From the NCBI GenBank assembly GCA_964627505.1, contig CAZVKB010000004.1, positions 3,295 to 67,294 on the forward strand: DNA of 64,000 nt. Reading direction: 5' to 3'. A program made the translations under genes and the position numbers. The DNA is from an uncultured Actinomycetes bacterium. GTDB lineage: Bacteria > Actinomycetota > Actinomycetes > S36-B12 > UBA10799. The notes beneath the pieces are model-generated. The model was not told the DNA's origin and made no database searches. It saw only the letters and a list, made by a program, of their open reading frames with translations. Positions 9,065 to 52,705 of the stretch are shown here, piece by piece; within the stretch, counting starts at the first letter, position 1; each line of letters opens with the position of its first letter.

Positions 9065-10447
9065 GTGGTCTCGCCGGGAGTGCGGATTGCCTGGGATCTG
9101 CTGCGCGCGCGGCGGGCCGGTCCCGACGGCATCGCGGATCGCCAGCGTGCGCGCCTGCAGCAACTCGTCGCGCATGCACGAGCCACCTCGCCTTTCTACC
9201 GCGAGCACCTGCGCGCACTGCACGCAACCGACTGGGGACTCGCCGACATCCCCCCAGTCAACAAATCTGAACTGATGGCCGACTTCGACAACTGGGTAAC
9301 GGATCCTCGATTCGCCCGGGAGCGAGTGATGTCCTTCCTCAGCAGCAGCGCGGCGGTGGGCACGCCACTTGACGGGGCATTGATAGCGACGAGTTCCGGG
9401 GTGACCGGCCAACCCGGCATCTTTGTCCACGACGAGTTCGCCGTGGCTGTGTGTCAAGCCATGATCGTGGTGCGCGGCTACCTGGCGTGGCTGCGCTGGC
9501 CGCAAATCTCCGGATTCCTGCGCCACGGCGTCCGGGAAGCCGCCATCGTCGGAACCGGCGGCCACTTCGCCGGGGTGAGTTGGTTGGAACGAGCCCGGCA
9601 GCGGGCACCGTGGGTATCGAGAGTGATCAGTGTGCATTCAGCCCAATCCCCCATCGCGGCATTGGTGCGGGAACTCACGACCGTCGATCCGACCGCGTTG
9701 GTGGGCTACACCAGCGTGTTGCGGCTGCTGGCCGACGAGCAGATCGCCGGTCGGCTTGCGATTCACCCTTTGATCGCAGCAACATCTGGCGAAACCGCCA
9801 CAGATGGCGATCGGGCGCTGCTGGCCCGCGCTTTTGACTGTCCCATCAAGGAAACGTACGCCTGCTCCGAGGCGCTTTTCTTCGGATTTGGATGCGACCA
9901 GCGCTGGTTGCACGTCAGCGCGGACTGGGTGATCGTGGAGCCCGTGCAAGCTGACGGCAGCCCCACACCGCCGGGCGTGTTCTCGGATTCCGTGTTGCTG
10001 ACCAACCTGGCCAACCGGACCGCGCCGCTGCTGCGCTACCAGTTGGGGGATTCGGTGATGCGCCGCGCCGACCGATGCCCCTGCGGCAATCCGCTGCCGG
10101 CGTTTCGAGTGGCCGGCCGCAGGGACGACACGCTGGTGATGCACGATGCGACCGGGCAACCCGTGGCGATCTCCCCCGTGGCCTTCGGGCTACTGGCAGA
10201 GGCAGTGCCAGGGGTGCGCAACTGGCAAATCGTGCAGGTGGATCGCACGACCCTCACAGTGCGCGTCAGTGCAGATAAGACAGCAGCACCGACCGAATCA
10301 CAGGAGGCGATCGCGGAGGCATTCCGGGAACATCTGATGTCCGTTCTTCGTGCTCATGGAGTTGGCAACGTGACACTTGTGATCCAAGAAGCTCAGCTGC
10401 GGCCAGACGCGAAGAACGGCAAGTTCCGCCACGTCTACGCACTGTGA
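9065..10447 (+). CDS. Phenylacetate-CoA ligase / coenzyme F390 synthetase-like adenylate-forming enzyme
   Basis: N-terminal RQRARLQQLVAHARATSPFYREHL and an AMP-binding-type TSGVTGQPG motif. The size is typical of this family. Confidence 0.7.
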   Translation: MVSPGVRIAWDLLRARRAGPDGIADRQRARLQQLVAHARATSPFYREHLRALHATDWGLADIPPVNKSELMADFDNWVTDPRFARERVMSFLSSSAAVGTPLDGALIATSSGVTGQPGIFVHDEFAVAVCQAMIVVRGYLAWLRWPQISGFLRHGVREAAIVGTGGHFAGVSWLERARQRAPWVSRVISVHSAQSPIAALVRELTTVDPTALVGYTSVLRLLADEQIAGRLAIHPLIAATSGETATDGDRALLARAFDCPIKETYACSEALFFGFGCDQRWLHVSADWVIVEPVQADGSPTPPGVFSDSVLLTNLANRTAPLLRYQLGDSVMRRADRCPCGNPLPAFRVAGRRDDTLVMHDATGQPVAISPVAFGLLAEAVPGVRNWQIVQVDRTTLTVRVSADKTAAPTESQEAIAEAFREHLMSVLRAHGVGNVTLVIQEAQLRPDAKNGKFRHVYAL

Positions 10448-10498: not shown

Positions 10499-11329
10499 CT
10501 AGTTGGGCACCGGCGCGCAGTACTGTTCGGGACTTTGATCGGCGATGATGTCCACTGTGGTGCCCTGGCGGACAACGAACTCGCTGGCACCAATCTTGTT
10601 GGCGGGATCGCCCCAGTCGTACGTGTATCCCATGCGGGTCCATGGGTACGGGTTGGCAGGGTCGTAGGCCAAGGCTTTCTGCAAGCGGAACCAGTCGGCG
10701 TGGTTGGGGTATGCCGGGTCCTCAGGTTGCACAGTGCCGTCGTCGTACACGGCAGTGGTGTCAGCAATTTGGGGATCGGGCGTCGGCCGGAACATGCCAG
10801 ACAGCGGGACCATCATGGTCACCATAGTCACCGGTTTGGCGTGCGGCGGCATGCCCAGGTATTGCAGGGAGCGCAGTGCCGGATCGGTGCCACCCGCCGC
10901 GACATAGGAACGGCAGAAATCCTGCAACTCCGGCACCGGAGTCAGCCAAACTTCGCGACTGAGAGTCATGGGCTGGCCGACACTGTCCGCATAACCAGTC
11001 CAGTCCGTCAACGTGACCATTTCGGCTGCCGTGTTGTCGGCGTTGAACACAACGTTCGAGGCCCCTGGGGTGAGGGCCACCAACGAGGGCGCCAACTGGT
11101 CGGGCCCGGCAGTTTCGGCATCTGCCACCGCAGCTAGGTACGCCGCGGGCAACTGGGTAGCGGTGGGGCTGGCTGCGGCAGAGGCCGAAGTGGAACTCGC
11201 TGTTGCGGTCGGGTCGGTGCTGGTGTCCGTGCCACTACATCCGGTGACAGTCAGACCGAGCGTGAGGACGAACCCGGCAGCCACACTTGGTTGAACCATT
11301 CGCATAGTGATCACGTTACGCCTGGCCAC
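10499..11329 (-). CDS. Hypothetical lipoprotein
   Basis: Signal peptide with lipobox LTVTGC, followed by a Ser/Thr/Ala linker. I recognise no catalytic motif. Confidence 0.6.
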   Translation of the reverse strand: MARRNVITMRMVQPSVAAGFVLTLGLTVTGCSGTDTSTDPTATASSTSASAAASPTATQLPAAYLAAVADAETAGPDQLAPSLVALTPGASNVVFNADNTAAEMVTLTDWTGYADSVGQPMTLSREVWLTPVPELQDFCRSYVAAGGTDPALRSLQYLGMPPHAKPVTMVTMMVPLSGMFRPTPDPQIADTTAVYDDGTVQPEDPAYPNHADWFRLQKALAYDPANPYPWTRMGYTYDWGDPANKIGASEFVVRQGTTVDIIADQSPEQYCAPVPN

Positions 11330-20020: not shown

Positions 20021-21220
20021 CTACTCCAACACCGACAACACGATGTCGAGACCGTGCTCGAGATCCTCGATGGAAATCATCAACGGTGGCGCCAAACGCA
20101 ACGTCGTCTCGTGCGTCTCCTTCATCAGTACGCCCTGACGCAATGCGGCCTCGCACCGCTGCCGAGCCGTGACCTGGCCACCAGCAGTGACTACTCCAGC
20201 CCACAACCCCTTGCCGCGAACTTCCACCACGGATTCCGGCGCCTGGACTCGGAGCCGTTCCAGCATGGCAGTACCCAACTCCTCTGACCGCTGCTGCATC
20301 TCCCCCTCCCGCAACATCCGGATCACCTCACGCCCAATCGCCAAGGCCAGCGGGTTCCCGCCGAAAGTCGATCCATGCTCACCTGGGTGCAATACCGCCA
20401 AGACATCATCCCGAGACACCACCGCCGACACCGGGATGATGCCCCCGCCCAGAGCTTTTCCAAGCAGCACCACATCAGGTATGACCCCCTCCCAATCACA
20501 CGCCAGAGTCCGCCCCGTGCGACCCAGCCCGGATTGGATCTCATCAGCGATGAACAGGACGTTGGCCTCCCGACACGCAGCAGCCGCGGCGGTCAGGTAG
20601 CCCGCTGGCGGCACAACCACCCCTGCTTCACCCTGGATCGGCTCCACCAGAAACGCCACCACATTTTCGTCCGCCAACGCCGCGGTGAGGGCGCCGATGT
20701 CCCCGTAGTCCACCGCCTCAAAACCCGGAGTAAACGGACCGAAGTCATTGCGCGCCACCGGGTCATCACTGAAGGAAACGATGGTGGTGGTGCGACCATG
20801 GAAGTTGCCGTGTGCCACCAAGATCTTGGCTTGCCCAGGTGCCACACCCTTGACCCGATACCCCCACGCCCGCGCCGTCTTGATGGCGGATTCGACAGCC
20901 TCTGCACCCGAGTTCATCGGCAGCACCCGATCCAACCCCACGAGGTCGGCCAGTTCGGCGCAGAACGGACCCAGCTGGTCGGAATGCATCGCTCGACTAG
21001 TGAGCGTCACGCGATCGAGTTGTGCGCGTGCCGCAGTTACCAGGCGCGGGTGTCGATGGCCGAAGTTGAGCGCGGAATAAGCACTGAGGAAATCCAGATA
21101 GCGACGGCCTTCGACATCCGTCACCCAGGCGCCCTCCGCCGAAGCCACGACCACCGGCAGCGGGTGGTAGTTGTGGGCACCGTGGAGGTCTTCGAGGTGG
21201 CGCAGATCAGCAGCTGTCAT
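20021..21220 (-). CDS. rocD: Ornithine--oxo-acid aminotransferase
   Basis: GAHNYHPLPVV, LSAYSALNFGHRHP, a class-III aminotransferase body and DEIQSGLGRTG. The start was trimmed to the ATG at 21220. Confidence 0.85.
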   Translation of the reverse strand: MTAADLRHLEDLHGAHNYHPLPVVVASAEGAWVTDVEGRRYLDFLSAYSALNFGHRHPRLVTAARAQLDRVTLTSRAMHSDQLGPFCAELADLVGLDRVLPMNSGAEAVESAIKTARAWGYRVKGVAPGQAKILVAHGNFHGRTTTIVSFSDDPVARNDFGPFTPGFEAVDYGDIGALTAALADENVVAFLVEPIQGEAGVVVPPAGYLTAAAAACREANVLFIADEIQSGLGRTGRTLACDWEGVIPDVVLLGKALGGGIIPVSAVVSRDDVLAVLHPGEHGSTFGGNPLALAIGREVIRMLREGEMQQRSEELGTAMLERLRVQAPESVVEVRGKGLWAGVVTAGGQVTARQRCEAALRQGVLMKETHETTLRLAPPLMISIEDLEHGLDIVLSVLE

Positions 21221-21236
21221 AGCCCACAGCCTAGGG

Positions 21237-22121
21237 CTAGGACACCCCTTTCGGCATGTCCACAACCTCCGGCCACGGTCGCGTCGAGGCTAGTACGGCA
21301 AGGTCCAGCTCGTTCGCAACTGTCGGGACAACACCTGGCTCGGCGTCAACCGCAGCGCAGTATTGCGCAGTGCCACAGCCACCGGCGCTTGCCATTGGGC
21401 GATCCGGCCGAATTGCGCCGCCCGCGCCACCACCGCATTCGCACGTGCTCGCCGCCGCAAACCAGTGCCAACGATCACCATCAATGCCGCAGCCGCCGAA
21501 CCGCCGTCCCTCTCCCCAGAACTCTCCCGACCAGTCGGGCGTGAATTCTGCCTCCGCGCTGACCCCACGCCAGCAGGTGTACCCCGAGTAGCGCGGCGGA
21601 TGCCTGCCCAGCACGCCCGTCCGAACCTGCGAATCCAGCCCGTCGGCACCAATCAAAATGTCCCCTGAGATGCGCTCGCCGTCGACCAAGGTCACCGTGG
21701 CATGAGCGGCATCTACCGCTCCCGCCTGCGCCGATGTGCGCACATGCACACCCCGGGACATGGCTGCCGCAAGTAAGTGATGCTGGAGGGTGGCGCGGTG
21801 CAATCCCCACGCTGGTGCGCCCACGGCAATGCGCAGGGCAGCGGCCTCGTTGGGCCCGAGCGCCGAGAGCACCCGGCCAGCCGCATCACAAATCGTGACC
21901 GAATCCAACACTCGCGCCACATCCGGAAGGTCGCCGACGAGCCCTAACCGCTGCAACGCCAGCACCGCATTCGGCTGTACCGTCAGCCCCGCCCCCACAG
22001 TCGTGAGCACATCGGCCTGCTCCAGCACCGCCACCTCGATGCCAGCCTCAGCAAGAGCTGCCGCCACGGTCAGCCCCCCGATCCCGGCCCCGACCACCAC
22101 ACACTTCAATCTCTCCTGCAT
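21237..22121 (-). CDS. FAD-dependent monooxygenase, apparently C-terminally truncated or frameshifted (possible pseudogene)
   Basis: Intact GxGxxG (VVGAGIGGL) and GADGLDSQVR motifs. The C-terminal GDAAH region is missing, and the last ~70 residues are atypical. Confidence 0.6.
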   Translation of the reverse strand: MQERLKCVVVGAGIGGLTVAAALAEAGIEVAVLEQADVLTTVGAGLTVQPNAVLALQRLGLVGDLPDVARVLDSVTICDAAGRVLSALGPNEAAALRIAVGAPAWGLHRATLQHHLLAAAMSRGVHVRTSAQAGAVDAAHATVTLVDGERISGDILIGADGLDSQVRTGVLGRHPPRYSGYTCWRGVSAEAEFTPDWSGEFWGEGRRFGGCGIDGDRWHWFAAASTCECGGGAGGAIRPDRPMASAGGCGTAQYCAAVDAEPGVVPTVANELDLAVLASTRPWPEVVDMPKGVS

Positions 22122-22142: not shown

Positions 22143-24791
22143 CTAAGCAAGGCCCGCGCCGCCGTGGGTACGTCGGAATTCCACGAACCAGTCCCACAGT
22201 TCGTCCGGCGGCATGGGCCGGGCGTACAGATACCCCTGAACTGACGTGCACCGCCGACGCTGGAGATAGTCAGACTGTTCCGACGTCTCCACCCCCTCTG
22301 CCACGCACCGCATGTTCAGCTCCTCGGCCAGTGCGATGATCGAACGCACCACCGCCTCCCCTGCCGGATCCACGCCAATCTGCCACACGAAGGAACAATC
22401 GATCTTGATGGTGTCAATCGGGAACAGCCGCAAGTTGGCAAGGGAGGAATAGCCGGTTCCGAAATCGTCCAAGGCGAACCGCACCCCGCGATCATGCAGA
22501 ACCCGCATCACTTCAGCGCTCGCCTCCGGTCGCCGCATGGCCCAGTTCTCAGTGATCTCCAATTCGAGTCGATCACTGTTCCAGCCGTTTCGTTCGAGTT
22601 CCCGTACCACCACATCGGCGAATCCGGTCTGCCCGAAATGTCGGCCGCTGACATTAACGGCCAGGTCAATGTCACCCATGCCGCGGTGCCGCCACTCGGC
22701 CACCTGGTGCAGGGACTGCGCCAACACCCACTCGCCGATCGCCAAGATGCTGCCACCTGCTTCCGCGACTGGAATGAACTCGGCCGGGCTGGGATTACCC
22801 AGCTCCGAGTTTTGCCACCGCAACAGCACCTCCACCCCAGTCATGGTCATAGTCGCAATGTCTATTTGCGGTTGGTAGAACAACTGAAATTCGCCGCTGT
22901 CCAACGCTTGTCGAAGTCCCCGCACGATCGCCCCCCGACGCTCCTGCAGACTGAAGGTTTCCGAATCGAAAAAGCGCCACGAGTTGCGGCCCTCGTGCTT
23001 GACCTCGTACATGGCGGTGTCGCCGCTGCGCAGCAGTGCGTTCGGGCCGTTGCCATCACGCGGGTACAGCGCGATCCCGATGGAGACCGAAGTGTGAATG
23101 AGGTTGGACTCCACCACAAACGGCCGACGCATGGCCCCGGCCACTTGTTCGGCCACGCGCGCCGCCTTGGCTTCGTCCGCATTCGGGATCACCACCACAA
23201 ATTCGTCCCCCGACAGTCGCGCTACCAGATCTTCGCTCGCCAATTGTTCCCGCAAACGCTCGATCGTGGCAATCATGAGCAGATCGCCGGCCTCATGCCC
23301 AAGCGAGTCATTGACCCCTTTGAAATCATCGATATCGAGATAGAGCAACGCAAACTCGTGACCGGTGAGTTCGGAATCTTCCACTAGTTCCGAAATTCGC
23401 TCCAGTAGCAACCGCCGGGTGGGGGCGCCGGTCAACGGGTCGTAGAACGCCAGCCGCTCGATCTCTTCCTGATTGCGCTTTCGCTCCGATATGTCCAGCG
23501 CGAGCGCAGCGTAGTTGCGGACGAAACCGTCTTCGTCGAGCATCCGGATAATCCGGGTTTCCTGCGGGTAGATCTCCCCGTTTTTGCGCCGGTTCCACAT
23601 TTCGCCGGACCAGTAATTGTCGGCGTTCAGAGCGTGCCAAAGTTCCTTGTAGAACGACTTGGGGTGCCGGCCGGATTGTAATACGGAAGGCTGTACCCCG
23701 ATCAGTTCAGCTTGGGTGTACCCGGTCATGCTTTCGTAGGCCTGGTTCACCGACACGATCCGGTTGTTGCCATCGGTGATGATCACCCCTTCGGCACTGC
23801 GGGCCAACACCTCCGCAGCCAGATGCAGATCCAATTGGGCTTGCCGGACATCGGTAAGGTCAGTCGCGATTCCCCCGACCGCGAAGATCCGACCACTGGT
23901 GTCGCGCAGCGGAAATCGGGTAGTGGCGATCACTTGGGTGTCGCCATCGTGCTCCCGCATTTCCTCCAGCACGATTTGGCGGCCTGTGCGAATCACCTCC
24001 GCCTCGAGGTTGTGGGCCTCGATCACTTCTGGCAACGGGAGCCAGTCGTGGCGGGTGTGTCCCAGCACCTCCTCCATCGGGCGAGCCAGCTCAGCCAACA
24101 TGGCCGTGTTTGCCAGCAGGCACGTCCCTTGCGTGTCGAAGGCGTACATCGGCAGGGCGGAACTGTCGAGCATGGCTTGGAACAGCACTCGGATCCGATC
24201 GGACTCCAACTCGGCGGTGCGGTCCTCGAGCAGCACCAGCAGCCGATCTGCGTCAACCCGTTTGGAGTCCAGCACGGCGAAGAGCAACTCCACCGGGATT
24301 CGACGCGCCGACCGACGTGGCAATACATGCAGATCGGCTAGTCGGACCGCTTCCCCGATCGGAATGGTGCGAGTGGCCGCATAGAACACGGTGCGCGAAT
24401 CTTCGTCGAGCATGGTGAGCAGGGATTTGGGCGCGAATCTGTTATTCGCCGGAAGTCCGAGCAACTCCACGGCCATGCGATTGGCTTCCAGAATCCGAAA
24501 CCCGAGGTCAATCACGATCGCCGCGACCGGCATGTTTTCAAAGATGGTGGAAAATTCTGACAGTGCTCTTGCCGCCCGCGCCTGGGTCTCCAGTAGTTCC
24601 TGATTCTGGACCTCGAGTTCGCTCTGATACAGGCTGAGTTCCTGCACCAGCGTTTGCACGCGCGCGGCGGCGTCGGCGTCGTGGAGCAGTTCGGGACTGT
24701 CTTGCGTTAATTGTGTGACTGCCCGGGCCCGGTCCCGCAGGTAGGAGAGGCGCTCGTGACGTTCCTGTTCGGGCTCTCCGTGGTCATTCAT
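22143..24791 (-). CDS. Multi-PAS GGDEF-EAL protein (diguanylate cyclase / c-di-GMP phosphodiesterase)
   Basis: N-terminal coiled coil and at least three PAS-like segments. GGDEF domain with SGDEF. EAL domain with EVL, DDFGTGYSS, KIDCSF and EGVET. The start overlaps the upstream gene by 8 nt. Confidence 0.9.
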   Translation of the reverse strand: MNDHGEPEQERHERLSYLRDRARAVTQLTQDSPELLHDADAAARVQTLVQELSLYQSELEVQNQELLETQARAARALSEFSTIFENMPVAAIVIDLGFRILEANRMAVELLGLPANNRFAPKSLLTMLDEDSRTVFYAATRTIPIGEAVRLADLHVLPRRSARRIPVELLFAVLDSKRVDADRLLVLLEDRTAELESDRIRVLFQAMLDSSALPMYAFDTQGTCLLANTAMLAELARPMEEVLGHTRHDWLPLPEVIEAHNLEAEVIRTGRQIVLEEMREHDGDTQVIATTRFPLRDTSGRIFAVGGIATDLTDVRQAQLDLHLAAEVLARSAEGVIITDGNNRIVSVNQAYESMTGYTQAELIGVQPSVLQSGRHPKSFYKELWHALNADNYWSGEMWNRRKNGEIYPQETRIIRMLDEDGFVRNYAALALDISERKRNQEEIERLAFYDPLTGAPTRRLLLERISELVEDSELTGHEFALLYLDIDDFKGVNDSLGHEAGDLLMIATIERLREQLASEDLVARLSGDEFVVVIPNADEAKAARVAEQVAGAMRRPFVVESNLIHTSVSIGIALYPRDGNGPNALLRSGDTAMYEVKHEGRNSWRFFDSETFSLQERRGAIVRGLRQALDSGEFQLFYQPQIDIATMTMTGVEVLLRWQNSELGNPSPAEFIPVAEAGGSILAIGEWVLAQSLHQVAEWRHRGMGDIDLAVNVSGRHFGQTGFADVVVRELERNGWNSDRLELEITENWAMRRPEASAEVMRVLHDRGVRFALDDFGTGYSSLANLRLFPIDTIKIDCSFVWQIGVDPAGEAVVRSIIALAEELNMRCVAEGVETSEQSDYLQRRRCTSVQGYLYARPMPPDELWDWFVEFRRTHGGAGLA

Positions 24792-27750
24792 GGTGTGTGG
24801 CCGCCTGTCGCCAGGGAGTGACGTTCACATGGCTGACGACCGCCCCGAAGCTGCCATCCATAATCCTCGAAACATTCATGACAAACCACCGCTGCTCGGT
24901 CGGTGAATGGCAGGGGTATTCCATCGAGAACGTCGCCTCGGTCCCCTCCAGCACATGCCGCAGGCCGACCACAGCTTCGTTTGCGGAATCCTCATCCGGC
25001 AGGCCGCCCATGCAGGCGTCGAAGTAGTTCGCCCCCGGGCCGGAGTGGATCATTGCCGGATCTCCGTTGGCGCGAGCAAACCGTACCCAGGCTGCGTTCA
25101 CCATCCGAATGGTGCCGTCGACGTCAACCACTGCCACGTGTTCTGGCAGTGCATCGATGACGGCTTGCAGGCGGCGGAGGTCGTGGAAGGCCGTGAAGTC
25201 GACAAACGTCGCCACGGCGCCTCGCACCGTTGGCGAACCCACTTGGTACGGCAGGATTCGTACCAAATAGGTGTGCCGACCGTCGAGTGAGCGCACTTCG
25301 CGCTCGGTCATACGCTCCTGGGTCATAGTGCTTTCCATGTCCACGATCAAATCGGGGTAATCCATGGAGTGCGCAAAGTCATCGAGCCGACGACCGATAT
25401 CGGAGTCCCGCAGCCGGAAAATCAAAGCTGCATCAGGGGAGAACCTCGTCAACACCAAGTTTTCGTCCACAAACACGGTGGCCACCCCCGCGGCTTTCGC
25501 CATGCTGTCGAGGTCGGCGTTCATGCGGTTGAGCACGAGTACCTTTTCCTGGTACTCCACATTGACCGTGTTGAGTTCTTCATTGAGGCTCTGCAGTTCT
25601 TCGTTGGAACTCTGCATCTCCTCGTTGGACGCCATCAGTTCCTCATTGGTGGCCTGCAGTTCCTCATTGGCCGTTTCCAACGCCTCGATGGTGGATTGCA
25701 GACTTTCCCGTGTGGCCATCAACTCACGTTCGAGGATGCTGATCCGCCGCACAGTCTCTTCATCGACATCAACCGAGCCGGCTTCCCCGTCGGTTGATAC
25801 ATCACCTGCGTTCTCGAAGCACAGCAGCGTGAACCGCTCCTCCTCGGGTTGCCGCAACGGATGCGCAGACAACCGCAGATGTTGCGTACTGCCGTCGAGA
25901 GCCGACACCTGCACATGGTCGGAGATGATCGCAACGTTGTCGCGATTCGATTTGTGCAGCAATGCTGAGGCGACCGGCACCAACGGCCCTGGCAACAACC
26001 GGTTGACCATCAGACTGGCCGACCCAGCACTCAAACGTACGAAGGGTGACACGTCGCCGAAGACATGCACCACCTCATGGTTGGCATTGACCAAAATCGC
26101 CGGGGGCGCGAACTCCCGCAACAGCGCCAAAGTCCCGGCCTCCAAGAGATCCGGATCGACGTGAGTCGGCGGCTGCGGGCGGGAGACTGAGCGCACCACC
26201 GAGGAACGACCCGCGGGCATGGGACCGGGCATCATCCGTTCCACAGAAAGCGGACGGGTTTTGCCCACCTTTTGAAAAATCTTGTGCCGAGAACTCACCA
26301 CCCGCAAACCTTCGGTGCCTGAGGACAGTGATTCGCTGGATCCCAAGAAGAGGTAGCCACCGGGCCGGATGGCATATTCCAGTGACCGCAGCGCGCGTTC
26401 CTGGGCTGACAATTTGAAGTAGATCAGGGTATTGCGGCACAGCACCAGATCCATGTTGGTGAAGGGTGGATCGGACAGCAGGTTGTGCCGTGCCACCACC
26501 ACGGACTGCCGCAGTTCGTTGGTCACCACAAATGAGTTGCCCTGTTTGATGAAGAAGTGCTCCAAGCGGTCGCGGTTGATCTCCACACTGGTGGATTCGG
26601 GGTACTGGCCGGCTCCGGCGCTTTCCACGCACCGCTGATCGACATCGGTAGCAAAAATTTTCAACGGCGGCCAGGTGCCGGCGCGCTGAAACGCTTCCAT
26701 GAAAAGGATCCCCAGGGAATAGGCTTCCTCCCCAGTGGCGGTGCCGGCCACCCACGCCCGAATCACTTCCCCACCTTTTTTGTTCGCCATGATGTCGGGG
26801 ATGACGACTTCGGCCAACAGGTCAAAAGCCTCGGCATCTCGGAAGAAACTCGTAACTGCGATCAACATCTCTTGCCGCAGTGTCAAAGCTTCGGAACGGT
26901 CGTTGAGCAGCAGTCGGTAGTAAGCGTCGAGGTCAGGGACGTGCCGCACCTGCATCCGTCGATCGATCCGGCGCAGAATGGTCGCCGGCTTGTAGTCCCG
27001 GAAGTCGATCCCACCCACTTCGAACAGCAGGGCCAGGATCGCTTCGAGCGCCTCATCCGCCGACAGGTGCGCCATGGACACCGGCACATTGCTGATCTCG
27101 GAGGGCGCAGTAAACGGCTCGTGGCGCATGTGCGCCATGATGCGGCCGGGCAGATCCTCCGCCGGCAGCACAGCATCCACCACACCGGTGCTGATCGCGC
27201 TTCTGGGCATGCCGTCGAACTTCGCCGATTCCGGCTCCTGCACACACACAAAGCCATCGGCGGCATTGATCGTCACCGTGCCCCGTGTGCCATCGGTGCC
27301 GGTGCCCGAGAGCACCACGCCAATCGCCTTCGATCGATACGTCTCAGCCAAGGACGCGAAAAAGATGTCGATCGGCAAGGTGAGTCCGTGCGGGCTCTTT
27401 GGGGTCAGGTGCAGATGCCCCTGACTGGCGTGCATGACCGCACCAGGAGGTATCAAATAGACGTGGCCAGGTTCGATGCGCATGTCATCCTCAACCACCA
27501 CCACAGGCATGCTGGTGTGGCGGGACAAAAGGTTGTTCATGATCGATTTGTGGTCTGGCGACAGGTGCTGGATCACCACGAAAGCCGCACCGCTATCAGA
27601 TGGACACGAGTCGAAGAAACGCTCCAGAGCGTCCAGCCCGCCCGCTGAGGCGCCGATGGCAACCACATAGCCATCACCGATTGCGGTTGGGGGGTGCCCG
27701 ACGACAGCCGATGGCTGCCCAGCCCCGACCAGGGGCGCCACCTCGGCCAT
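24784..27750 (-). CDS. CheB methylesterase - CheR methyltransferase fusion protein with coiled-coil and PAS domains; no kinase domain
   Basis: CheB-type AIGASAGGLDAL...VIQHL. CheR-type IRAWVAGTATGEEAYS. NEEL heptad coiled coil and C-terminal PAS-like segments (LPEHVAVVDVDGTIRMVNAAW). Confidence 0.85.
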   Translation of the reverse strand: MAEVAPLVGAGQPSAVVGHPPTAIGDGYVVAIGASAGGLDALERFFDSCPSDSGAAFVVIQHLSPDHKSIMNNLLSRHTSMPVVVVEDDMRIEPGHVYLIPPGAVMHASQGHLHLTPKSPHGLTLPIDIFFASLAETYRSKAIGVVLSGTGTDGTRGTVTINAADGFVCVQEPESAKFDGMPRSAISTGVVDAVLPAEDLPGRIMAHMRHEPFTAPSEISNVPVSMAHLSADEALEAILALLFEVGGIDFRDYKPATILRRIDRRMQVRHVPDLDAYYRLLLNDRSEALTLRQEMLIAVTSFFRDAEAFDLLAEVVIPDIMANKKGGEVIRAWVAGTATGEEAYSLGILFMEAFQRAGTWPPLKIFATDVDQRCVESAGAGQYPESTSVEINRDRLEHFFIKQGNSFVVTNELRQSVVVARHNLLSDPPFTNMDLVLCRNTLIYFKLSAQERALRSLEYAIRPGGYLFLGSSESLSSGTEGLRVVSSRHKIFQKVGKTRPLSVERMMPGPMPAGRSSVVRSVSRPQPPTHVDPDLLEAGTLALLREFAPPAILVNANHEVVHVFGDVSPFVRLSAGSASLMVNRLLPGPLVPVASALLHKSNRDNVAIISDHVQVSALDGSTQHLRLSAHPLRQPEEERFTLLCFENAGDVSTDGEAGSVDVDEETVRRISILERELMATRESLQSTIEALETANEELQATNEELMASNEEMQSSNEELQSLNEELNTVNVEYQEKVLVLNRMNADLDSMAKAAGVATVFVDENLVLTRFSPDAALIFRLRDSDIGRRLDDFAHSMDYPDLIVDMESTMTQERMTEREVRSLDGRHTYLVRILPYQVGSPTVRGAVATFVDFTAFHDLRRLQAVIDALPEHVAVVDVDGTIRMVNAAWVRFARANGDPAMIHSGPGANYFDACMGGLPDEDSANEAVVGLRHVLEGTEATFSMEYPCHSPTEQRWFVMNVSRIMDGSFGAVVSHVNVTPWRQAATHHE
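25575..25679 (-). repeat. Five tandem 21-bp units inside the CheB-CheR gene, encoding xNEELxx heptads
   Basis: Plus-strand units start at 25575, 25596, 25617, 25638 and 25659 (gttcttcattg / gttcttcgttg / tctcctcgttg / gttcctcattg / gttcctcattg). They translate to ANEELQA TNEELMA SNEEMQS SNEELQS LNEELNT. Confidence 0.8.
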
Positions 27751-27899
27751 GTTGCTGCCACCTTTCGGTCAGTTCCCCAATCGCGCCCATGGGCAGCATG
27801 CGACTCTCCGCATCGCCCTGCTCTGAAGGGGATCTCCACCCCCACCCTACGCCCATCCGGGCTAGTGGTTTCAACACATCGTCGGCTTCGGCAGCGAAA

Positions 27900-35115: not shown

Positions 35116-37215
35116 TCAGAGGCTGCTCAACGCCGGCAGTTCCGCCCCCGGGATCGGGTCGAGCCCCACCGCCAACAAGTGCGTGACGTCGCCCTCAGTT
35201 GCCGGGCTGCCCTGCCAGGTGGTGAGGTCGGCCAAAACCTTTCGTCGAGCTTCTTCGGGATCGGGTGCCTGGGCTGCTGCTGTCCAACGGCGGCGCAGTT
35301 CCCATGCGCGCTCTCGGGTCTGCAACGTCCATTTCAGGCGATTCATCTGCGTGGCGGTGGCTGGCAAACGCCACACCTGGGAGATCGCGTCCGGCAGTAC
35401 GATCCGGTAGTCGTGTCCCCCGCCCGCAAACACCCCGGGGGTCGGGGTGAGTGCGTTACCCATGTCGAAGAACGTGGCGAAAAACGTGGTCACCGGCGTC
35501 CACGACGTGCCTTTGGGCGCCCCGACCGGGCGTCGATCCGCCGGTCCGAGCCAGGCGGGACGCCGCCACAGCACGTCGGCATCGAACTTGGGAATGGGAT
35601 CGTCGCCGTTTTGCAGCAGCAGATAACGCACCTGGTCCCGTTCGTCCTCAGACAAGTTGACCCAGTCCATGATGGCGCGCGTGATGAAGACTGGGCCGGG
35701 ACCCACCGGCGGTGGCGTCGCGATGCTGCGGTCACCCTCCAGTTGTTTCTTCCAGACCGTCGCGGCAGGCGTTCCGATCCAGAGTGCAGCTTCGATCCCC
35801 ACACCTTCCAGCCCGAACAGCCCGGTGTCGCGGAACACCTCTTGGGACACCTGGGAGCCCAACGATTCGCCGAAAAGTAGGAACCTGGGACGATCCGCTG
35901 GCGCCATGTCGCGAATGCGGGCCATGATCCCGTCGAGCACCATGCGCGTCTGGTGCACACCTGCGGACACTTTGCCCAACGAGAGCGCCGAGGGCAGCAC
36001 GGAATACTGAATCGCCGCGCTGGCGCAGTCACCACCTGTGAGGTATTCGAGTGCCTCGCACGCCACGTAGTTGACGTATCCCGAACCCGTGGGCGAAAAG
36101 AGGGCGAAGACCTTGCGTTGCAGTGCACCAGTGCGATCGATTTCGGCCAGTAGTTGCGCCGCCCGGGATTCTTCATCAGTCGCTGAGGCCAGTGCCGCGT
36201 ACACCCTAATCGGCTGCTTCGCCCCAGAAATGCCCATGACGGCATCGATGCTCTCCGGACTGGGTGCCATGCTGAGCCAGCGGCGACCTTCCCGGCTCAA
36301 CTGCGCCCACGGTATGCCGGATTCCGGGCACCCAGTCACGGTCGGCGAGGTCGGCGGCTGGGCGTGACCGGGTTCGATCCCCTCGCCGCCCTTCTCCAAC
36401 TTCGCTGACACCAGCGACACTCCCAACCAGCCCAATCCGTAGGTAGTGGCCAGCGCCCCAACCCGTCCGAAAGTGCGATGTTCCTCCGGGTTGCCTCCCA
36501 GCACCACCGCGGCCGCATGCGCGAAAGTCCTCGACAGTGCCACCTCGCCGTGGGCCAGAGCGTACGTCAAACCCGTCACGACGACACCGATCGTGGTTGC
36601 CTGGAGCGGGGCCACCGAACGCGTGGTGTCTTCGAAGTTCTTTCCGTCTTTGCCCTTGGCACCTACTTGAGCCTGCCAGGGCCGGGTGGCCAAGTAGGAC
36701 CCCACGCCGGTGGTGGCAGCCGCAACCAACGTTTCCCACGGTCGATATCTGCTACCGAGCGACTTCTCCAAGCCGAGTGAGGCGACCCCTGCGGTTCCGG
36801 CTGCTGCCAAACTGCCTGCCGCCAGACGGGCGATGGAGCGCCGCGGTGGTTCGTGTTCCCGCCAACGCAGCGCTGTCGCTGCCCCAATTCCCAAGACCGC
36901 CGATGTGACATCAACCGCCAACAGGGCGCGACGGGACGCCGGCGTGCCCGAGAAGCGTCTGGCGATGGATCCCAGCAGTGAATGTCCGGCCGCCCCCCAG
37001 GCATAACCGGCGGCCGCCCCGACGCCGGTTATGACCGCTTGGTTGGTGGTATCGCGGGACAGCAGGCCCGGCTGATACGACCGGCCAGCGAGCACAGCGG
37101 CCACCAGCACGCCCGCTCGGGCGGAGTGGTCGAGGGTATCGGCAGCGATGACAACAGCATCTTCCATAGGCAGATCCTGCCATGACCACCTGATTCGTGG
37201 CTGTGCCCGCGCCAA
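35116..37215 (-). CDS. Membrane-anchored alpha/beta hydrolase family protein (Abhydrolase_9-like), paralog 1
   Basis: N-terminal multi-TM region, then SPTGSGYVNY...LEYLTGGDCA...FGESLGS (nucleophile elbow GxSxG). Clear paralog of 47457-49436. Confidence 0.7.
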   Translation of the reverse strand: MARAQPRIRWSWQDLPMEDAVVIAADTLDHSARAGVLVAAVLAGRSYQPGLLSRDTTNQAVITGVGAAAGYAWGAAGHSLLGSIARRFSGTPASRRALLAVDVTSAVLGIGAATALRWREHEPPRRSIARLAAGSLAAAGTAGVASLGLEKSLGSRYRPWETLVAAATTGVGSYLATRPWQAQVGAKGKDGKNFEDTTRSVAPLQATTIGVVVTGLTYALAHGEVALSRTFAHAAAVVLGGNPEEHRTFGRVGALATTYGLGWLGVSLVSAKLEKGGEGIEPGHAQPPTSPTVTGCPESGIPWAQLSREGRRWLSMAPSPESIDAVMGISGAKQPIRVYAALASATDEESRAAQLLAEIDRTGALQRKVFALFSPTGSGYVNYVACEALEYLTGGDCASAAIQYSVLPSALSLGKVSAGVHQTRMVLDGIMARIRDMAPADRPRFLLFGESLGSQVSQEVFRDTGLFGLEGVGIEAALWIGTPAATVWKKQLEGDRSIATPPPVGPGPVFITRAIMDWVNLSEDERDQVRYLLLQNGDDPIPKFDADVLWRRPAWLGPADRRPVGAPKGTSWTPVTTFFATFFDMGNALTPTPGVFAGGGHDYRIVLPDAISQVWRLPATATQMNRLKWTLQTRERAWELRRRWTAAAQAPDPEEARRKVLADLTTWQGSPATEGDVTHLLAVGLDPIPGAELPALSSL

Positions 37216-46626: not shown

Positions 46627-47460
46627 TCACCGCGGGCGGTAGCGCTGCCAGGCCGAGTTCCACGCGGAGCGAGAGGTGCGCGTCACGCGATCCCATTGCT
46701 CGCCCACTTGCTCGCTTAGTTGGTTTCCGAAGTGTTCCGGAACATGCTCGGTGAGAAAGTCGGGTAAGACAGTGCGCATGCGGGCGGCTCGGCGCCGCCG
46801 ACTTGCCGCAGCGGCCGCCACCCTTGCCCGCGCCGCCGCTTCCGGGTCGATCGCAAATGTGGCCGCTCGCAGTTCGGCAATGCCGTGCACGGGCACTCCG
46901 GAGGTTTCCAGCGCCAGCGCGTTGGTGAGGAGCACCGGGCGGTCGCCCAATGCCGGCAACATCAGCGCGTCCATGCGGCGGGCGAAGGCCACCGCCTCCC
47001 GCGCCCGCCGACCAGCGAGATTCGCCGGGACCTGGGTCACCACGAGCACCACCGGCAGTCGCTCGGCGACATCGGCCAACAGCGACATCTGGGCATCAGT
47101 GAGATCCCCGGTTCCCCAGCGCAGCACGAACCACGCGCTGTGCAACTGATCAGAGCTGCCGAATGTGTCGGTTGCGGCGAGGTGCGCATCTAACGCTTCC
47201 CACACTTCTACAGGCACGCCGATCCCGGGCCCGGATGCTGGTGCGGCGCCCGGCAACGGGGTGGTCCGCATCACTTGCAACTCCACGACATCATCGGGGT
47301 CGCGCAACACCTGGGCTCCCGGCAAAACTGCTGGTCCAAGTGCGGCCGCGACCGGTTCCGCGGCGAAGCAGGTCCGCGCCAGAGTGCGGACTCCGCAACC
47401 GGGCGGGCCAAACACCACCACGTTGAAGCGACCGCGCTCGGCGGAGACAGGAGTCGTCAT
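46627..47460 (-). CDS. Hypothetical protein with a degenerate P-loop (GTPase-like fold suspected)
   Basis: VVVFGPPGCGVRT at the N-terminus, with no Lys at the Walker A position. Arg-rich C-terminal helix. The start overlaps the stop of the upstream hydrolase gene (ATGA). Confidence 0.5.
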   Translation of the reverse strand: MTTPVSAERGRFNVVVFGPPGCGVRTLARTCFAAEPVAAALGPAVLPGAQVLRDPDDVVELQVMRTTPLPGAAPASGPGIGVPVEVWEALDAHLAATDTFGSSDQLHSAWFVLRWGTGDLTDAQMSLLADVAERLPVVLVVTQVPANLAGRRAREAVAFARRMDALMLPALGDRPVLLTNALALETSGVPVHGIAELRAATFAIDPEAAARARVAAAAASRRRRAARMRTVLPDFLTEHVPEHFGNQLSEQVGEQWDRVTRTSRSAWNSAWQRYRPR

Positions 47461-49436
47461 GCTGGCAGTGTGGCAGGAGCGTCGAGCGACGCGTCAGCGG
47501 TTGTCCACGACTTGAGTTGTCGGCTGATGGACTCCTTGGCCTGCGCGACTTGTTCGGCCACCAACCGCCGTTCCGCCCATGTCAACTCGCGGCGGCGCAA
47601 CGCCCGTTCCACCCGGCCCATCAGCGCCCCGTCGCCGGGCAGGTCGAAGGCGATTTGGGTGAATCGGCCGAGATCTGCGCGATAGTCGTGACCGCGGGCG
47701 GCGAAGCGACCAGGCACCACGTCTGAGGCGTTGAGCACGTCCACGGTGGTGAGCATGAATGACGTGATCGGTCGCCACCGCACGCCTTCGATCAGTGCCG
47801 GCGAGCGATTGGGTCCGTCGGCCATCCAATCCGGGGCCTGCACTGCCAGGGCAGGGCGGTACTTGGTGATGGGGTCGTCATGGTGGCTCAAGAGGATGAA
47901 TCTGGCGCTGCGGCGCCGCTGCTCAGACAATTCCAACCACTCGGTGTAAGAGGCAATCTCGACCACTTCCGAATCGGGATCGGTACGCTCTGGGTCGAGT
48001 CGCCACTGTTCGGCCCATTTGCTCTCTGCCGGTGTGCCGACGAACAGCGCCCGACTGATCCCCGCGCGATGCAGACCGGCCGTGCCTTCATGCAGAAAGG
48101 CGTCCTGCAGCGTGAAAGCGCCGAGGCTCTCCCCGACGGCGACGAACTTCGGGCGCTGGGCCACCGGGATCGCCCGCAGCCGACCGTTGATGGCGTGCAG
48201 CAGGGCTCGGTTCTGTTCCCGGCCGAGGTGCACACGGTCGAGGGACAAGAACGACGGCCGCAGCGAATACTGCAAAGCGATAGTCGCGCAATCCCCGCCG
48301 GTGAGGTACTCCAGCGTCTCGGCCACCACATAGTTCACATAGCCGGTGCCGGTGGGGGCAGCGAGGCACAGCACGGAGCGTTCGAAAGCGCCGAGGGTCT
48401 CCAACTCGTCCATTGCAATCGAGACCCGCGCATCCACTGTGGCGGCAGTCCCCAGCCCAACGAACACCCGGACCGGATCTTTTGCGGGTGCACCTGTGAC
48501 GTCCGAGATCTCCTCCGCCGGCAGCACCATATTGACGAATCGGCGCCCTTCGCGACCCAACGATTTCCAATCCACAGATGATCGCGGTCCCCCGCTGACG
48601 GTCGATGCGCCCGGGGGGACTTGGTAGGCATACTCCACCGCCGCCCCACCGAGTTCCGTGCGGCGATACACCGCCTCCAGACCCAGCCACATCAGGATTC
48701 CGTAGGGGGCTAGTGCCATCACGTGCCCGATGGGCTCAGCCAGACCGGCGAACCCGGGGGTCGCCCGCCGCACCCATGCCGACACCCCGCCGGCGACTCT
48801 TCGTTCCAAGGCCGCAAGCACCGACACACCGGTCATCACGGCGACACCTTGACCAATCGACGAGACCATAGGCACCGGATGCGGGGCGCGTCTTCGGTAC
48901 CAAATGATTTCCGCCGATGCCACGCTCGCCCCGAGCAGAAAACCCGCTGGGATCAGACTGGTGGGTACCTTGCCGGTGCGCCCGACGGTGAGGTCGACGC
49001 CAGCCTGGAGTCCGGCGATGGTCAGGCCGAGGCCACCGGCGGCGGCGATCTGCCATGCGGCGGTGCGAGCGGCGGCCCGCTTCACGGGTTCACCTCGGCG
49101 CCGCGGCAATGCGCGCTGCGCGGCGACTCCGGCCCCCAAAGCAACACCATGCGCTACTACGCCCAGCACCCGCCGGTTGCTCACCGACTGCTCGTCCCCA
49201 CCCGGCAACGCGCGCTCGGTGAGCGTGTCGATCAACGCCTGCGAAGCCCGCGAGACGCCATAGAGGACCACCGCACTCAGCCCTGTGAGCACAGCCTGCT
49301 GGGCTGGTTTGCGGGGCAGCAGGCTCGGCGCAAAACTTTGTCCCACCGCCAAGGTGGCTGCCAGCGTGGCTGCGCGGTCGTCGATGTCGCGCTCGGAAAC
49401 GCGGCGCAGCAGTTGTTGCAAACGCTCACCCATCAC
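47457..49436 (-). CDS. Membrane-anchored alpha/beta hydrolase family protein (Abhydrolase_9-like), paralog 2
   Basis: Same architecture as 35116-37215: APTGTGYVNY...LEYLTGGDCA...VGESLGA. Confidence 0.7.
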   Translation of the reverse strand: MMGERLQQLLRRVSERDIDDRAATLAATLAVGQSFAPSLLPRKPAQQAVLTGLSAVVLYGVSRASQALIDTLTERALPGGDEQSVSNRRVLGVVAHGVALGAGVAAQRALPRRRGEPVKRAAARTAAWQIAAAGGLGLTIAGLQAGVDLTVGRTGKVPTSLIPAGFLLGASVASAEIIWYRRRAPHPVPMVSSIGQGVAVMTGVSVLAALERRVAGGVSAWVRRATPGFAGLAEPIGHVMALAPYGILMWLGLEAVYRRTELGGAAVEYAYQVPPGASTVSGGPRSSVDWKSLGREGRRFVNMVLPAEEISDVTGAPAKDPVRVFVGLGTAATVDARVSIAMDELETLGAFERSVLCLAAPTGTGYVNYVVAETLEYLTGGDCATIALQYSLRPSFLSLDRVHLGREQNRALLHAINGRLRAIPVAQRPKFVAVGESLGAFTLQDAFLHEGTAGLHRAGISRALFVGTPAESKWAEQWRLDPERTDPDSEVVEIASYTEWLELSEQRRRSARFILLSHHDDPITKYRPALAVQAPDWMADGPNRSPALIEGVRWRPITSFMLTTVDVLNASDVVPGRFAARGHDYRADLGRFTQIAFDLPGDGALMGRVERALRRRELTWAERRLVAEQVAQAKESISRQLKSWTTADASLDAPATLPA

Positions 49437-50597: not shown

Positions 50598-51323
50598 GTG
50601 GTGGTCATGTCTTCACTCAATGGTGCGAGTGTGATCGTGGCTGGGGCCACGGGCGGTTTGGGTGCGCCTCTGAGTCAGTTGTTGGCCGAGGCTGGTGCCA
50701 AGCTCACGTTGACGGCCCGGCGCCCGGATGGGCTCGCTGCGCTACCGCCAGAGGTGCTCAGTACTGGGACGGTGGCGATTCCGGCCGACCTGTGTAAACC
50801 GCAGGCGGCTCAGACCGTTGTGGATGCTGCCATGCGTGCCCATGGCCGCATCGATGGGGTGGTGTGTGCCATTGGGGCGGTCGCTTTCGGTCCGGCGATG
50901 GAACTCCCCGATCAGGTACTGATTGACCTATTCACGCTCAACACGCTCGCGCCCATCCGACTGCTGAAAGCGGCATATCCACACTTGCTCGCGTCCGCAG
51001 AACAGGGGCGGGCCCCGTTTGTCATCAACATCAGTGCTGTAGTGGCTGAGCAGCCGACGCCGGGGATGGCTGGCTATGCCGCGTCCAAGTCCGCGCTGAC
51101 TGCATTCGATCGGTCTGCAGCGCGGGAGTTGCGCCGCAAGGGGATCCGACTGATCGATGTCCGTCCGCCACATACCGAAACGGGCTTGGCCGAACGGCCG
51201 GTGTACGGCCATGCGCCGCGGCTTCCGCGCGGATTGCCCCCGCGGACGGTGGCGAAGCGGATCGTGGGGGCGATCACAGAGGGCGATTCCGACGTCCCCA
51301 GTGGCGCGTTCATTCTGGGGTGA
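50598..51323 (+). CDS. Short-chain dehydrogenase/reductase (SDR)
   Basis: GATGGLG cofactor motif and the YAASKSAL catalytic YxxxK. Confidence 0.8.
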   Translation: MVVMSSLNGASVIVAGATGGLGAPLSQLLAEAGAKLTLTARRPDGLAALPPEVLSTGTVAIPADLCKPQAAQTVVDAAMRAHGRIDGVVCAIGAVAFGPAMELPDQVLIDLFTLNTLAPIRLLKAAYPHLLASAEQGRAPFVINISAVVAEQPTPGMAGYAASKSALTAFDRSAARELRRKGIRLIDVRPPHTETGLAERPVYGHAPRLPRGLPPRTVAKRIVGAITEGDSDVPSGAFILG

Positions 51324-51363
51324 GGTTTTCGGCGGCAAATCTGACGTTGGGGCAGCCCCTGCG

Positions 51364-51699
51364 TCACAGATACAGGCCGGTGGCTTCGTCCTCCACTCGT
51401 TCCGAAGCGATTGCGTGCACGTCCCGTTCGCGCATCAGTGTGTATGTCTTGCCGCCGATTTCGACATCGGCCAGATCGGCAGGCTCATACAGCACCCGGT
51501 CCCCGATCTCCAGGTGCCGCACATTCGGGCCCACCCCCACCACATGTGCCCACAGCAGCCGCCGCCCCATCGATGCCGTCGCGGGAATCACGATTCCCCC
51601 GCCCGATCGCCGCTCCCCGTCGGGACCTTCCGAGGTCACCAAGACCCGGTCGTGCAGCAATTTGATGGGAAGGGCAGTGGTCGTGTCGAGAGCGGACAT
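51364..51699 (-). CDS. GroES/Cpn10-like co-chaperonin paralog
   Basis: IKLLHDRVLV...GGIVIP...VGVGP...GDRVLY pattern of Cpn10. No groEL is adjacent. Confidence 0.7.
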   Translation of the reverse strand: MSALDTTTALPIKLLHDRVLVTSEGPDGERRSGGGIVIPATASMGRRLLWAHVVGVGPNVRHLEIGDRVLYEPADLADVEIGGKTYTLMRERDVHAIASERVEDEATGLYL

Positions 51700-51703
51700 G
51701 GCT

Positions 51704-52540: not shown

Positions 52541-52705
52541 CGCTAACTCCCCGCCGGCGAGACGTTCGCGGCAACCGCCACACCACCGGACCTGACGTCG
52601 CGATACCACCGGCAGGACAGTCCGTTGCGAATGGCGACGGCAACTCCATTGCTCTCTACACCCACAGCCGCCACCCTAATCCCCGCGTCTGCGTAGGCTA
52701 CCGCC

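Follow-up and report, generated by a model that had tools for sequence, protein, structure and literature searches.

Genes A and B lie side by side on the reverse strand of a 64-kilobase (kb) stretch of DNA from an uncultured Actinomycetes bacterium; this whole stretch is called the window below. Gene A (24784..27750) encodes a fusion of CheB, CheR and PAS domains, and gene B (22143..24791) a protein with PAS, GGDEF and EAL domains. We found that this locus is a typical copy of a two-gene cassette that is widespread yet functionally uncharacterised, in which a CheB/CheR fusion gene without a kinase is followed by a gene whose product carries a distinctive helix-PAS module near its N-terminus. 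Comparative data from many phyla make it very probable that A and B are a dedicated functional pair. In the textbook account, bacterial chemotaxis adapts by the reversible methylation of glutamates, a mechanism that has been tied almost wholly to chemoreceptor arrays; the pairing described here suggests that protein methylation may act on outputs like the turnover of cyclic di-GMP (c-di-GMP) by a route that is widespread and has yet to be studied. The account that we narrowly favour for the whole chain is that a chemoreceptor-independent methyl writer and eraser acts on a coiled coil and so tunes a phosphodiesterase-biased partner.

A two-gene cassette found across phyla

A scan of species-representative genomes gave at least 590 confirmed relatives of A, from which 80 loci were kept, 73 of them assessable downstream of the fusion gene. 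Kinase-less fusions of ~980 amino acids (aa) form a large family that includes proteins of Rhodocyclaceae, Chromatiaceae, Methylococcales and others; the closest genome match to A among the matches listed, at 68% identity, comes from a metagenome-assembled genome of Actinomycetota (locus L008). A same-strand open reading frame (ORF) of at least 300 aa starts no more than 160 nucleotides (nt) downstream in 46 of the 70 loci that have a full-length fusion gene. Pfam assigned PAS domains to 42 of these 46 downstream proteins (the window protein was left out), GGDEF to 28, EAL to 26 and HATPase_c to 12. The N-termini of the partners share a signature, L-[VI]-E-[ED]-L-[RK]-[IV]-[YH]-Q-x-E-L-E-x-Q-N-x-E-L, which is followed by a PAS domain.

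We ran this signature as a regular expression against the 80 loci in six-frame translation; no locus had more than one match, and 51 had exactly one. The signature lies 76-282 nt past the fusion stop, on the same strand, in 45 loci; in two others (L025 and L063), where frameshifts have misplaced the stop, the match to the fusion gene ends ~150-175 nt before it. The original prediction had called for a survey of the neighbours of kinase-less CheB/CheR fusions, and this is its outcome: a fusion gene followed by a signature partner in 47 of the 73 assessable genomes, which come from at least ten phyla. The match is elsewhere in four loci, where the signature gene runs convergently, lies upstream, or comes third, with a second fusion gene in front of it. 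Such a second CheB/CheR fusion directly follows the first in two loci (L077:11300-15316 and L083:11267-13753), and in the latter the signature protein is encoded by the third gene, with the signature at nt 13907.

The junction between the two genes is likewise constrained. With refined start sites, the partner start overlaps the fusion stop in 32 of the 45 loci (by 4 nt in 19 and by 8 nt in 8), and it falls within 30 nt of it in ten more. A's stop and B's start share 8 nt at 24784..24791 on the reverse strand (ATGAATGA), as had been noted before; A ends there in CAC CAT GAA TGA, and the second frame reads ATG AAT GAC. Because overlaps of 4 and 8 nt predominate in the 45 loci, the junction in the window is one of two standard ones. 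The nearest relatives (P0004 and P0005, 67-69% identical) contain the same pair amid entirely different flanking genes, and the flanks also all differ in four homologs of B that we looked up. Since the pair sits among different genes in its relatives, the conserved unit consists of the two genes and does not extend to the FAD-binding (flavin adenine dinucleotide) and aminotransferase genes that follow B. The pair in the window has all the features of the cassette: an output gene on the same strand, a start within a few nt of the fusion stop, and the core motif [YH]Q-x-ELE-x-QN-x-EL 30-130 residues from the N-terminus of the encoded protein. The signature of B is the sole match in the six frames of the window.

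According to the original prediction, fusions of this kind often carry a histidine kinase. This does not hold in the clade of A: a fused HisKA-HATPase-REC module was confirmed in only 2 of 75 relatives (L067 and L075), so that the kinase-less form is the rule. Neither of the two kinase-carrying fusions has a signature gene in its locus.

The association was also recovered when the search was turned around. Here a degenerate DNA pattern of the signature was scanned on metagenome contigs, blind to CheB and CheR, and 62 loci were retained in which a fusion gene could be matched or the contig reached 1 kb or more upstream. A fusion gene was found next door in 33 of them, directly upstream as a separate ORF in 30 and divergent in 3; it lay 2.8 kb away in one locus, and the other 28 had none. 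The signature was located ~30-130 residues from the N-terminus in all fusion-adjacent proteins and in all but two of the rest. The output domains of these metagenome proteins are diverse: HATPase_c (23), HisKA (15), HisKA_3 (6), receiver (10), GGDEF/EAL (6), and SpoIIE, HD and a sigma-54 activator (one each). Five partners that adjoin a fusion gene (L096, L101, L105, L120 and L135) are only ~185 aa long and comprise the signature helix and one PAS domain, with no output domain. The earlier proposal of a methylation switch that feeds into c-di-GMP turnover is therefore upheld in part: the pair is a dedicated one, judging from its recurrence across phyla, its overlaps and its signature, and the restriction to c-di-GMP is too narrow, the outputs being also kinases, SpoIIE, HD and sigma-54 proteins.

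Homologs of B gave a further comparison. Among 119 PAS-GGDEF-EAL homologs, 16 carry the signature. A fusion gene lies upstream of each of the four signature-bearing homologs that were looked up, with overlaps of 4-11 nt; for four homologs that lack the signature, there is no fusion gene within 5 kb. A profile search with the partner-module alignment against a set of 5.8 billion proteins returned only ten short fragments, a result that gives no measure of family size. One metagenome contig (L001, 12968-17000) contains an identical gene A and no called gene B. We rejected the loss of B on this contig as an artefact of assembly or gene calling, because its DNA matches B throughout at 99.4% identity with no gaps, and sequence is missing from the contig further downstream.

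The fusion protein: two methylation enzymes and a helix of NEEL heptads

Gene A starts with ATG and encodes 988 aa. Pfam and an AlphaFold2 model bear out the domain order read earlier from the sequence, namely CheB, CheR, a coiled coil and PAS domains; all coordinates that follow are on the reverse strand. The CheB methylesterase/deamidase domain spans residues 29-208 (27127..27666; Pfam CheB_methylest 30-204, 3e-57). It is followed by a CheR methyltransferase (26269..27060) made of CheR_N, residues 231-297, and an S-adenosylmethionine (SAM)-binding domain, residues 299-494 (Pfam CheR_N 234-284; CheR 299-490, 7e-49). Residues 535-647 (25810..26148) are a PAS-like domain in AlphaFold2 only, Pfam being silent, with a PAS-type pattern of helices and strands at a predicted local distance difference test score (pLDDT) of ~60-86. 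Next come a single uninterrupted helix of 92 residues, presumably a coiled coil (residues 662-753; 25492..25767; AlphaFold2), a PAS_10 domain (residues 747-853; 25192..25512; Pfam 1e-21 and AlphaFold2) and a C-terminal PAS domain (residues 858-976; 24823..25179; Pfam PAS_4 866-971, 2e-10, and conservation), which brings the PAS-like domains to three. The AlphaFold2 model is of moderate quality (mean pLDDT 67, predicted template modelling score 0.31) and was used for secondary structure alone. Pfam found no HisKA, HATPase_c or Response_reg in A, which is in line with the reported lack of a histidine-kinase module; the fusion is also without a receiver.

Both enzymes retain their active sites. 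The CheB catalytic triad of A, S35, H62 and D153, is invariant among 20 orthologs. S35 and H62 align by count with S164 and H190 of CheB (PDB 1A2O/1CHD), and D153, within GTGTDG, stands opposite GMGNDG of the same structures. We take the latter motif to hold the catalytic D286. The CheR part keeps FFRD, TGEEAYS, ATDVD and CRNTLIYF in an alignment to PDB 5FTW/1BC5; its SAM-binding motifs are invariant in the same 20 orthologs, as are R260, R261, R264 and R265 of the basic CheR_N helix. Since invariance extends over the triad, the motifs for SAM binding and the basic helix that binds substrate, the two domains look functional, and both CheR and CheB of A are apparently catalytically active. Over 96-100% of its length, A is 57-69% identical to its nearest members, ~980-aa proteins annotated at the JGI (Joint Genome Institute) as 'two-component system CheB/CheR fusion protein'. 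It shares with the K13924-type CheB/CheR fusions the CheB triad, CheR_N plus CheR, a NEEL helix followed by PAS_10, and similarity over the full length.

The long helix is placed between PAS-like domains of the protein. Residues 695-730 (25561..25668) consist of five heptads (NEELQAT, NEELMAS, NEEMQSS, NEELQSL and NEELNTV, followed by N), and the N, E, E and most other positions of these heptads are invariant in the 20 orthologs. In 75 relatives, drawn from at least ten phyla and only 36-68% identical to A overall, the heptad N-[EQD]-[EQD]-[LMIF], nearly always spelt NEEL, occurs exactly five times in 74 and six times in one; the segment that they share reads EELETxNEELQATNEELxxxNEELQSxNEELQSVNEEL. 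A phmmer search with residues 660-760 of A returned 4,122 clusters (50% identity) at E<=1e-10, mostly at position ~640-700 of ~1000-aa proteins.

The NEEL heptads match the chemoreceptor methylation consensus. There are two strict matches, EELQAT at 696 (E696-E697) and EELMAS at 703 (E703-E704), and a third, loose one at 710, all three spaced by 7 residues. The strict pattern occurs once in the 17,122 aa of the other ORFs of the window. On this consensus match, E697, E704 and E711 of A (within 25561..25668) are candidate methyl-accepting residues. The chemoreceptor hairpin domain MCPsignal, which would mark a classical methyl-accepting protein, has no Pfam match in A or B and no tblastn match in the window.

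The partners contain a related helix. Inspection of the alignments shows Asn/Gln at one core position ('a') and Leu at the other ('d') in every heptad of both the A helix and the partner helix, and a profile comparison aligns the partner module to residues 680-855 of A, which comprise the helix and PAS_10, and keeps the heptads in register (E 1.3e-4). The original prediction considered that the methylation substrate could be the fusion itself or its partner; both fit, as the helix of A has consensus heptads and that of the partner is a shortened copy of the heptad pattern. In many relatives the partner heptad [EQD]-E-L-x-x-A-Q fits the methylation consensus. The B protein of the window reads QNQEL where close orthologs read QNEEL, a single case of a Glu/Gln swap that resembles those of chemoreceptor sites.

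Two further observations concern the fusion family. Three proteins (P0262, P0264 and P0273) have a five-heptad NEEL helix and PAS_10 near the N-terminus, followed by PAS and a kinase, and lack CheB and CheR; they may be truncated gene calls, or else free receiver proteins, which would be natural substrates. The C-terminal PAS domain of A contains a near-invariant Cys913 and a motif EYPCHSPxExRWF (C947-H948), as seen across 19 orthologs. These residues might be a cofactor-binding, metal-binding or redox-sensing pair, and could provide the input signal of the system.

The partner protein: a signature helix, three PAS domains and an output probably biased towards phosphodiesterase

Gene B also starts with ATG and encodes 882 aa, with the PAS-GGDEF(SGDEF)-EAL(EVL) order that the first reading had given. 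Its AlphaFold2 model (mean pLDDT 85.6) shows helices at residues 8-31, 33-37 and 39-86, which precede and run into the first PAS domain, so that the helical N-terminus read earlier as a coiled coil is real. The signature helix occupies residues 48-70 (24582..24650, reverse strand as for all features of B; LVQELSLYQSELEVQNQELLETQ), inside the predicted helix 39-86, with the core motif starting at Y55. Its residues Q56, E58, L59, E60, Q62, N63, E65 and L66 are invariant in 17 signature-bearing homologs. Three PAS domains, supported by Pfam and AlphaFold2, follow at residues 80-190, 208-317 and 330-436 (23484..24554), then a GGDEF domain at 448-603 (22983..23450; Pfam 6e-41) and an EAL domain at 626-859 (22215..22916; Pfam 2e-68).

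The GGDEF domain reads SGDEF at 527-531 and SEDL at the RxxD inhibitory site, so that neither the GG[DE]EF motif nor the RxxD site of an active diguanylate cyclase is found in B. The combination of SGDEF with S/A/P-E-[DE]-L, in which RxxD is lost, is read in the B of the window and its 87-88% identical orthologs; most partners have RxxD, GGDEF and EAL intact. SGDEF variants can keep cyclase activity. The EAL domain has the variant EVL at 654-656 and contains E654, R658, N713, E745, E748, D775, D776, K796, E832, E835 and Q852, which we take to be the catalytic and metal-binding residues and which are all invariant in the family alignment. The best NCBIfam match of B is phosphodiesterase DibA, over the C-terminal 560 residues (566 bits, below the 980-bit cut-off). 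As the GGDEF domain is degenerate and the EAL domain intact, the output of B is most likely c-di-GMP hydrolysis, with some residual cyclase activity possible. Beyond close orthologs of 87-91% identity, the next relatives are ~40% identical for B as against 66-69% for A; the partner evolves much faster.

A possible mechanism and its alternatives

We propose that A and B would work as a self-contained signalling unit of two proteins, with no need of a chemoreceptor, CheA or CheW. A would be a cytoplasmic sensor that has three PAS-like domains and carries its own methyl writer (CheR) and eraser (CheB), and B would be made in step with it through the stop/start overlap. The helix-PAS modules of the two proteins may then associate, and CheR and CheB of A would add methyl groups to, and remove them from, exposed glutamates of the coiled coil, for which E697, E704 and E711 of A are the best candidates here; the partner heptad [EQD]-E-L-x-x-A-Q would be another possible methyl site in many relatives. 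Signals sensed by the PAS domains of A would shift the balance between CheR and CheB, and hence the level of methylation. As in chemoreceptors, this might alter the packing of the helices, and the change could pass through the PAS domains of B to its EAL end.

The steps of this scheme do not all carry the same weight. The pairing itself is the firmest, whereas the coiled coil as methyl acceptor is about an even call, and we lean towards the complete chain by a small measure. Several observations speak against it. About 30% of the fusion genes have no signature gene in their locus, the close relative P0006 is without a partner, and ~45% of the signature proteins do not adjoin a fusion gene. The homology between the helix-PAS modules of A and the partner is weak (probability 54% in the profile comparison), and the signature helix of B, which reads QELLET, fails even the loose methylation consensus. 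Our literature search found no biochemical work on any member of the CheB-CheR-PAS family. Moreover, the Glu-Glu pairs of the NEEL heptads are essentially invariant and contain Gln in none of the 75 relatives, whereas chemoreceptor methylation sites commonly alternate between Glu and Gln; such invariance could reflect a surface used for binding and not for modification.

This last point leads to the alternative that survives best, although we consider it unlikely: the NEEL helix and the signature would merely dock A onto B, or hold homodimers together, while CheR and CheB modify a different part of B, some other protein or nothing that matters to B, and A acts allosterically through contacts between PAS domains. 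Glu-Glu pairs that never turn into Gln are what a recognition surface would be expected to have, PAS domains with N-terminal helices commonly dimerise, and both the alignment of the partner module to the helix and PAS_10 of A and the failure of B's helix to fit the methylation consensus suit docking as well. What docking leaves unexplained is the presence of a chemoreceptor methylation consensus at heptad spacing, and also the invariance of the catalytic domains and the basic CheR helix in a protein whose sole conserved neighbour is the partner.

It is less probable still that A is an ordinary adaptation enzyme of chemotaxis, methylating chemoreceptors encoded elsewhere, and that B is simply co-expressed with it. 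CheB and CheR of A are true homologs of the chemotaxis enzymes, and many of the host lineages, among them Rhodocyclaceae and Chromatiaceae, are motile. The cstB mutant of Azospirillum, studied by Wu and colleagues in 2011, reportedly has a swarming defect; reduced swarming tells against a chemoreceptor-independent role, since it also fits action on ordinary chemoreceptors. Against this view, the CheB part lacks a receiver, no che gene lies in the 64 kb of the window, and the versions with a fused kinase bring their own output. The gene content of the window looks actinobacterial, and this group is mostly non-flagellated. Nor does ordinary chemotaxis explain a signature-specific pairing with non-chemotaxis outputs across phyla.

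A reverse flow, in which B or its signal controls A and the true output of A is elsewhere, appears very unlikely. B does have three PAS domains of its own, and the ~185-aa partners that consist of the signature and one PAS domain have no output domain to offer; most partners, however, end in output domains (kinase, GGDEF/EAL, SpoIIE, HD or sigma-54 activator), and A has none. That A and B are neighbours by chance, or for transcription only, and are not linked in function, a view for which only the general tendency of signalling genes to cluster can be cited, is contradicted by the comparative data, with the signature found once per locus in a fixed place after the fusion from Actinomycetota to Chloroflexota, and we regard it as extremely improbable.

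If methylation of a coiled coil does control the partner, the principle may extend beyond the window. We put forward tentatively, as a possibility that we would not bet on, that the fusion is a general methyl writer and eraser and that the [YH]Q-x-ELE-x-QN-x-EL helix-PAS module is a portable methyl-accepting receiver placed on many outputs. Such a receiver, found on histidine kinases, GGDEF/EAL proteins, SpoIIE, HD and sigma-54 activators, would confer chemotaxis-like adaptation or memory in the absence of chemoreceptor arrays. The signature proteins that are encoded far from fusion genes (about half) would then be extra substrates, in the same way as one CheR/CheB pair serves many chemoreceptors. 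If the same chemistry on a compact coiled coil tunes phosphodiesterases, cyclases and kinases, methylation-based adaptation or memory would be common to cytoplasmic signalling in general, and a large set of proteins now labelled 'chemotaxis' would carry the wrong annotation. The abundance of the family, with the 590 or more matches in species-representative genomes and the 4,122 clusters at 50% identity, gives the question some weight. The A-B pair should lend itself to tests, as it comprises two soluble proteins with named candidate residues and simple enzymatic read-outs, and it might serve as a small synthetic adaptation module.

Transcription signals and gene content of the window

The 149 nt upstream of A (27751..27899, reverse strand) are the presumed promoter region of the pair. 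We found no promoter-like site there, the counts being no better than in shuffled sequences, and the same was true of promoter and terminator scans. Because these scans do no better than shuffles, the argument for co-transcription of A and B is the overlap of the two genes. An Rfam scan of the window returned no RNA family.

The original prediction had pointed out that no MCP (methyl-accepting chemotaxis protein), CheA, CheW or CheY gene accompanies the pair, and our searches agree. A tblastn search of the window with CheY, CheW and the Tsr signalling domain of E. coli gave no match at E<=0.01, and Pfam, run on 42 of the ~51 called ORFs, found transporters and metabolic enzymes and no che gene or chemoreceptor.

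A gene for an FAD-binding oxidoreductase (21237-22121, reverse strand) begins 21 nt past the stop of B and overlaps, by 29 nt, a class-III aminotransferase gene (20021-21265, reverse strand). These two genes may be co-transcribed with the pair here; as members of the unit they were rejected, since other genes take their place in the nearest relatives and in all other loci. The window also encodes SfLAP, WS/DGAT, a GPAT_C acyltransferase and an LPG_synthase_TM protein, and is rich in genes of lipid metabolism. We take these genes and the Pfam families SfLAP, WS/DGAT, PGPGW and DUF4190 to be of actinobacterial type. Together with the best listed genome match in Actinomycetota and the labels of the samples (contigs for the window are found in ERZ28573802 and ERZ28615197), they point weakly to an actinobacterium from sewage metagenomes. 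Two paralogous membrane hydrolases of the Abhydrolase_9 family are encoded at 35116-37215 and 47457-49436, both on the reverse strand. For six ORFs of 276-460 aa, Pfam gave nothing at E<=1e-5; they lie at 9065-10447, 51320-52546 and 52706-53545 on the forward strand and at 10499-11329, 46627-47460 and 58437-59345 on the reverse strand.

Comparison with known systems

The closest known proteins are the CheB/CheR fusions of KEGG K13924, among them CstB of Azospirillum brasilense (Wu et al. 2011, Microbiol Res 166:606), which share with A the order CheB, CheR, helix, PAS_10, PAS. To our knowledge, this fusion family is known just as an annotation and from one genetic study. In that study, CstB is said to be kinase-less, and its mutants reportedly show changes in exopolysaccharide, colony form and cyst formation. 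These are traits often under the control of c-di-GMP. The pairing of fusion and partner, the signature and the NEEL heptads were not described in the literature covered by a full-text search, one that took in few subscription journals; apart from the citation of Wu and colleagues, it turned up only mentions of the KEGG kind.

DibA and PdeR-type PAS-GGDEF-EAL phosphodiesterases resemble B in combining an intact EAL domain with an altered GGDEF domain. What sets B apart from similar PAS-GGDEF-EAL proteins is its additional N-terminal signature helix and first PAS domain, absent from 103 of the 119 homologs.

CheR is known to act beyond chemoreceptors: PhoP of Salmonella, a non-chemoreceptor, is reported to be methylated by CheR at the consecutive acidic pairs E8/D9 and E107/E108 (PMC8546571). 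PhoP offers a precedent for CheR acting on acidic pairs outside chemoreceptors, and it differs from the present case in that a stand-alone CheR moonlights on a response regulator, whereas in A the two enzymes are fused and dedicated, and a conserved partner goes with them. A survey of CheR-TPR (tetratricopeptide repeat) fusions does not take in the CheB-CheR-PAS architecture (PMC3447774), and a 2022 census of c-di-GMP inputs includes CheR and CheB only inside complete chemosensory systems (PMC8846402).

With the adaptation system of E. coli and Salmonella chemoreceptors, A has in common the folds and catalytic residues of CheB and CheR. In contrast to that system, CheA, CheW, CheY and a chemoreceptor signalling domain are absent from the neighbourhood of A, its CheB part has no receiver that could be phosphorylated, one polypeptide joins the two enzymes to the candidate substrate helix, and the output is probably not the flagellar motor. 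The Wsp system of Pseudomonas (WspA-F/WspR) is alike in linking CheR/CheB-type methylation enzymes to c-di-GMP metabolism, as is proposed for A and B. Wsp requires a membrane chemoreceptor, CheW, a CheA-type kinase and a receiver-GGDEF regulator, whereas the window has none of these and B has no receiver. The window was searched for the features that define the canonical Che and Wsp systems (receiver, chemoreceptor, CheA and CheW) and has none of them; A and B therefore fall outside both.

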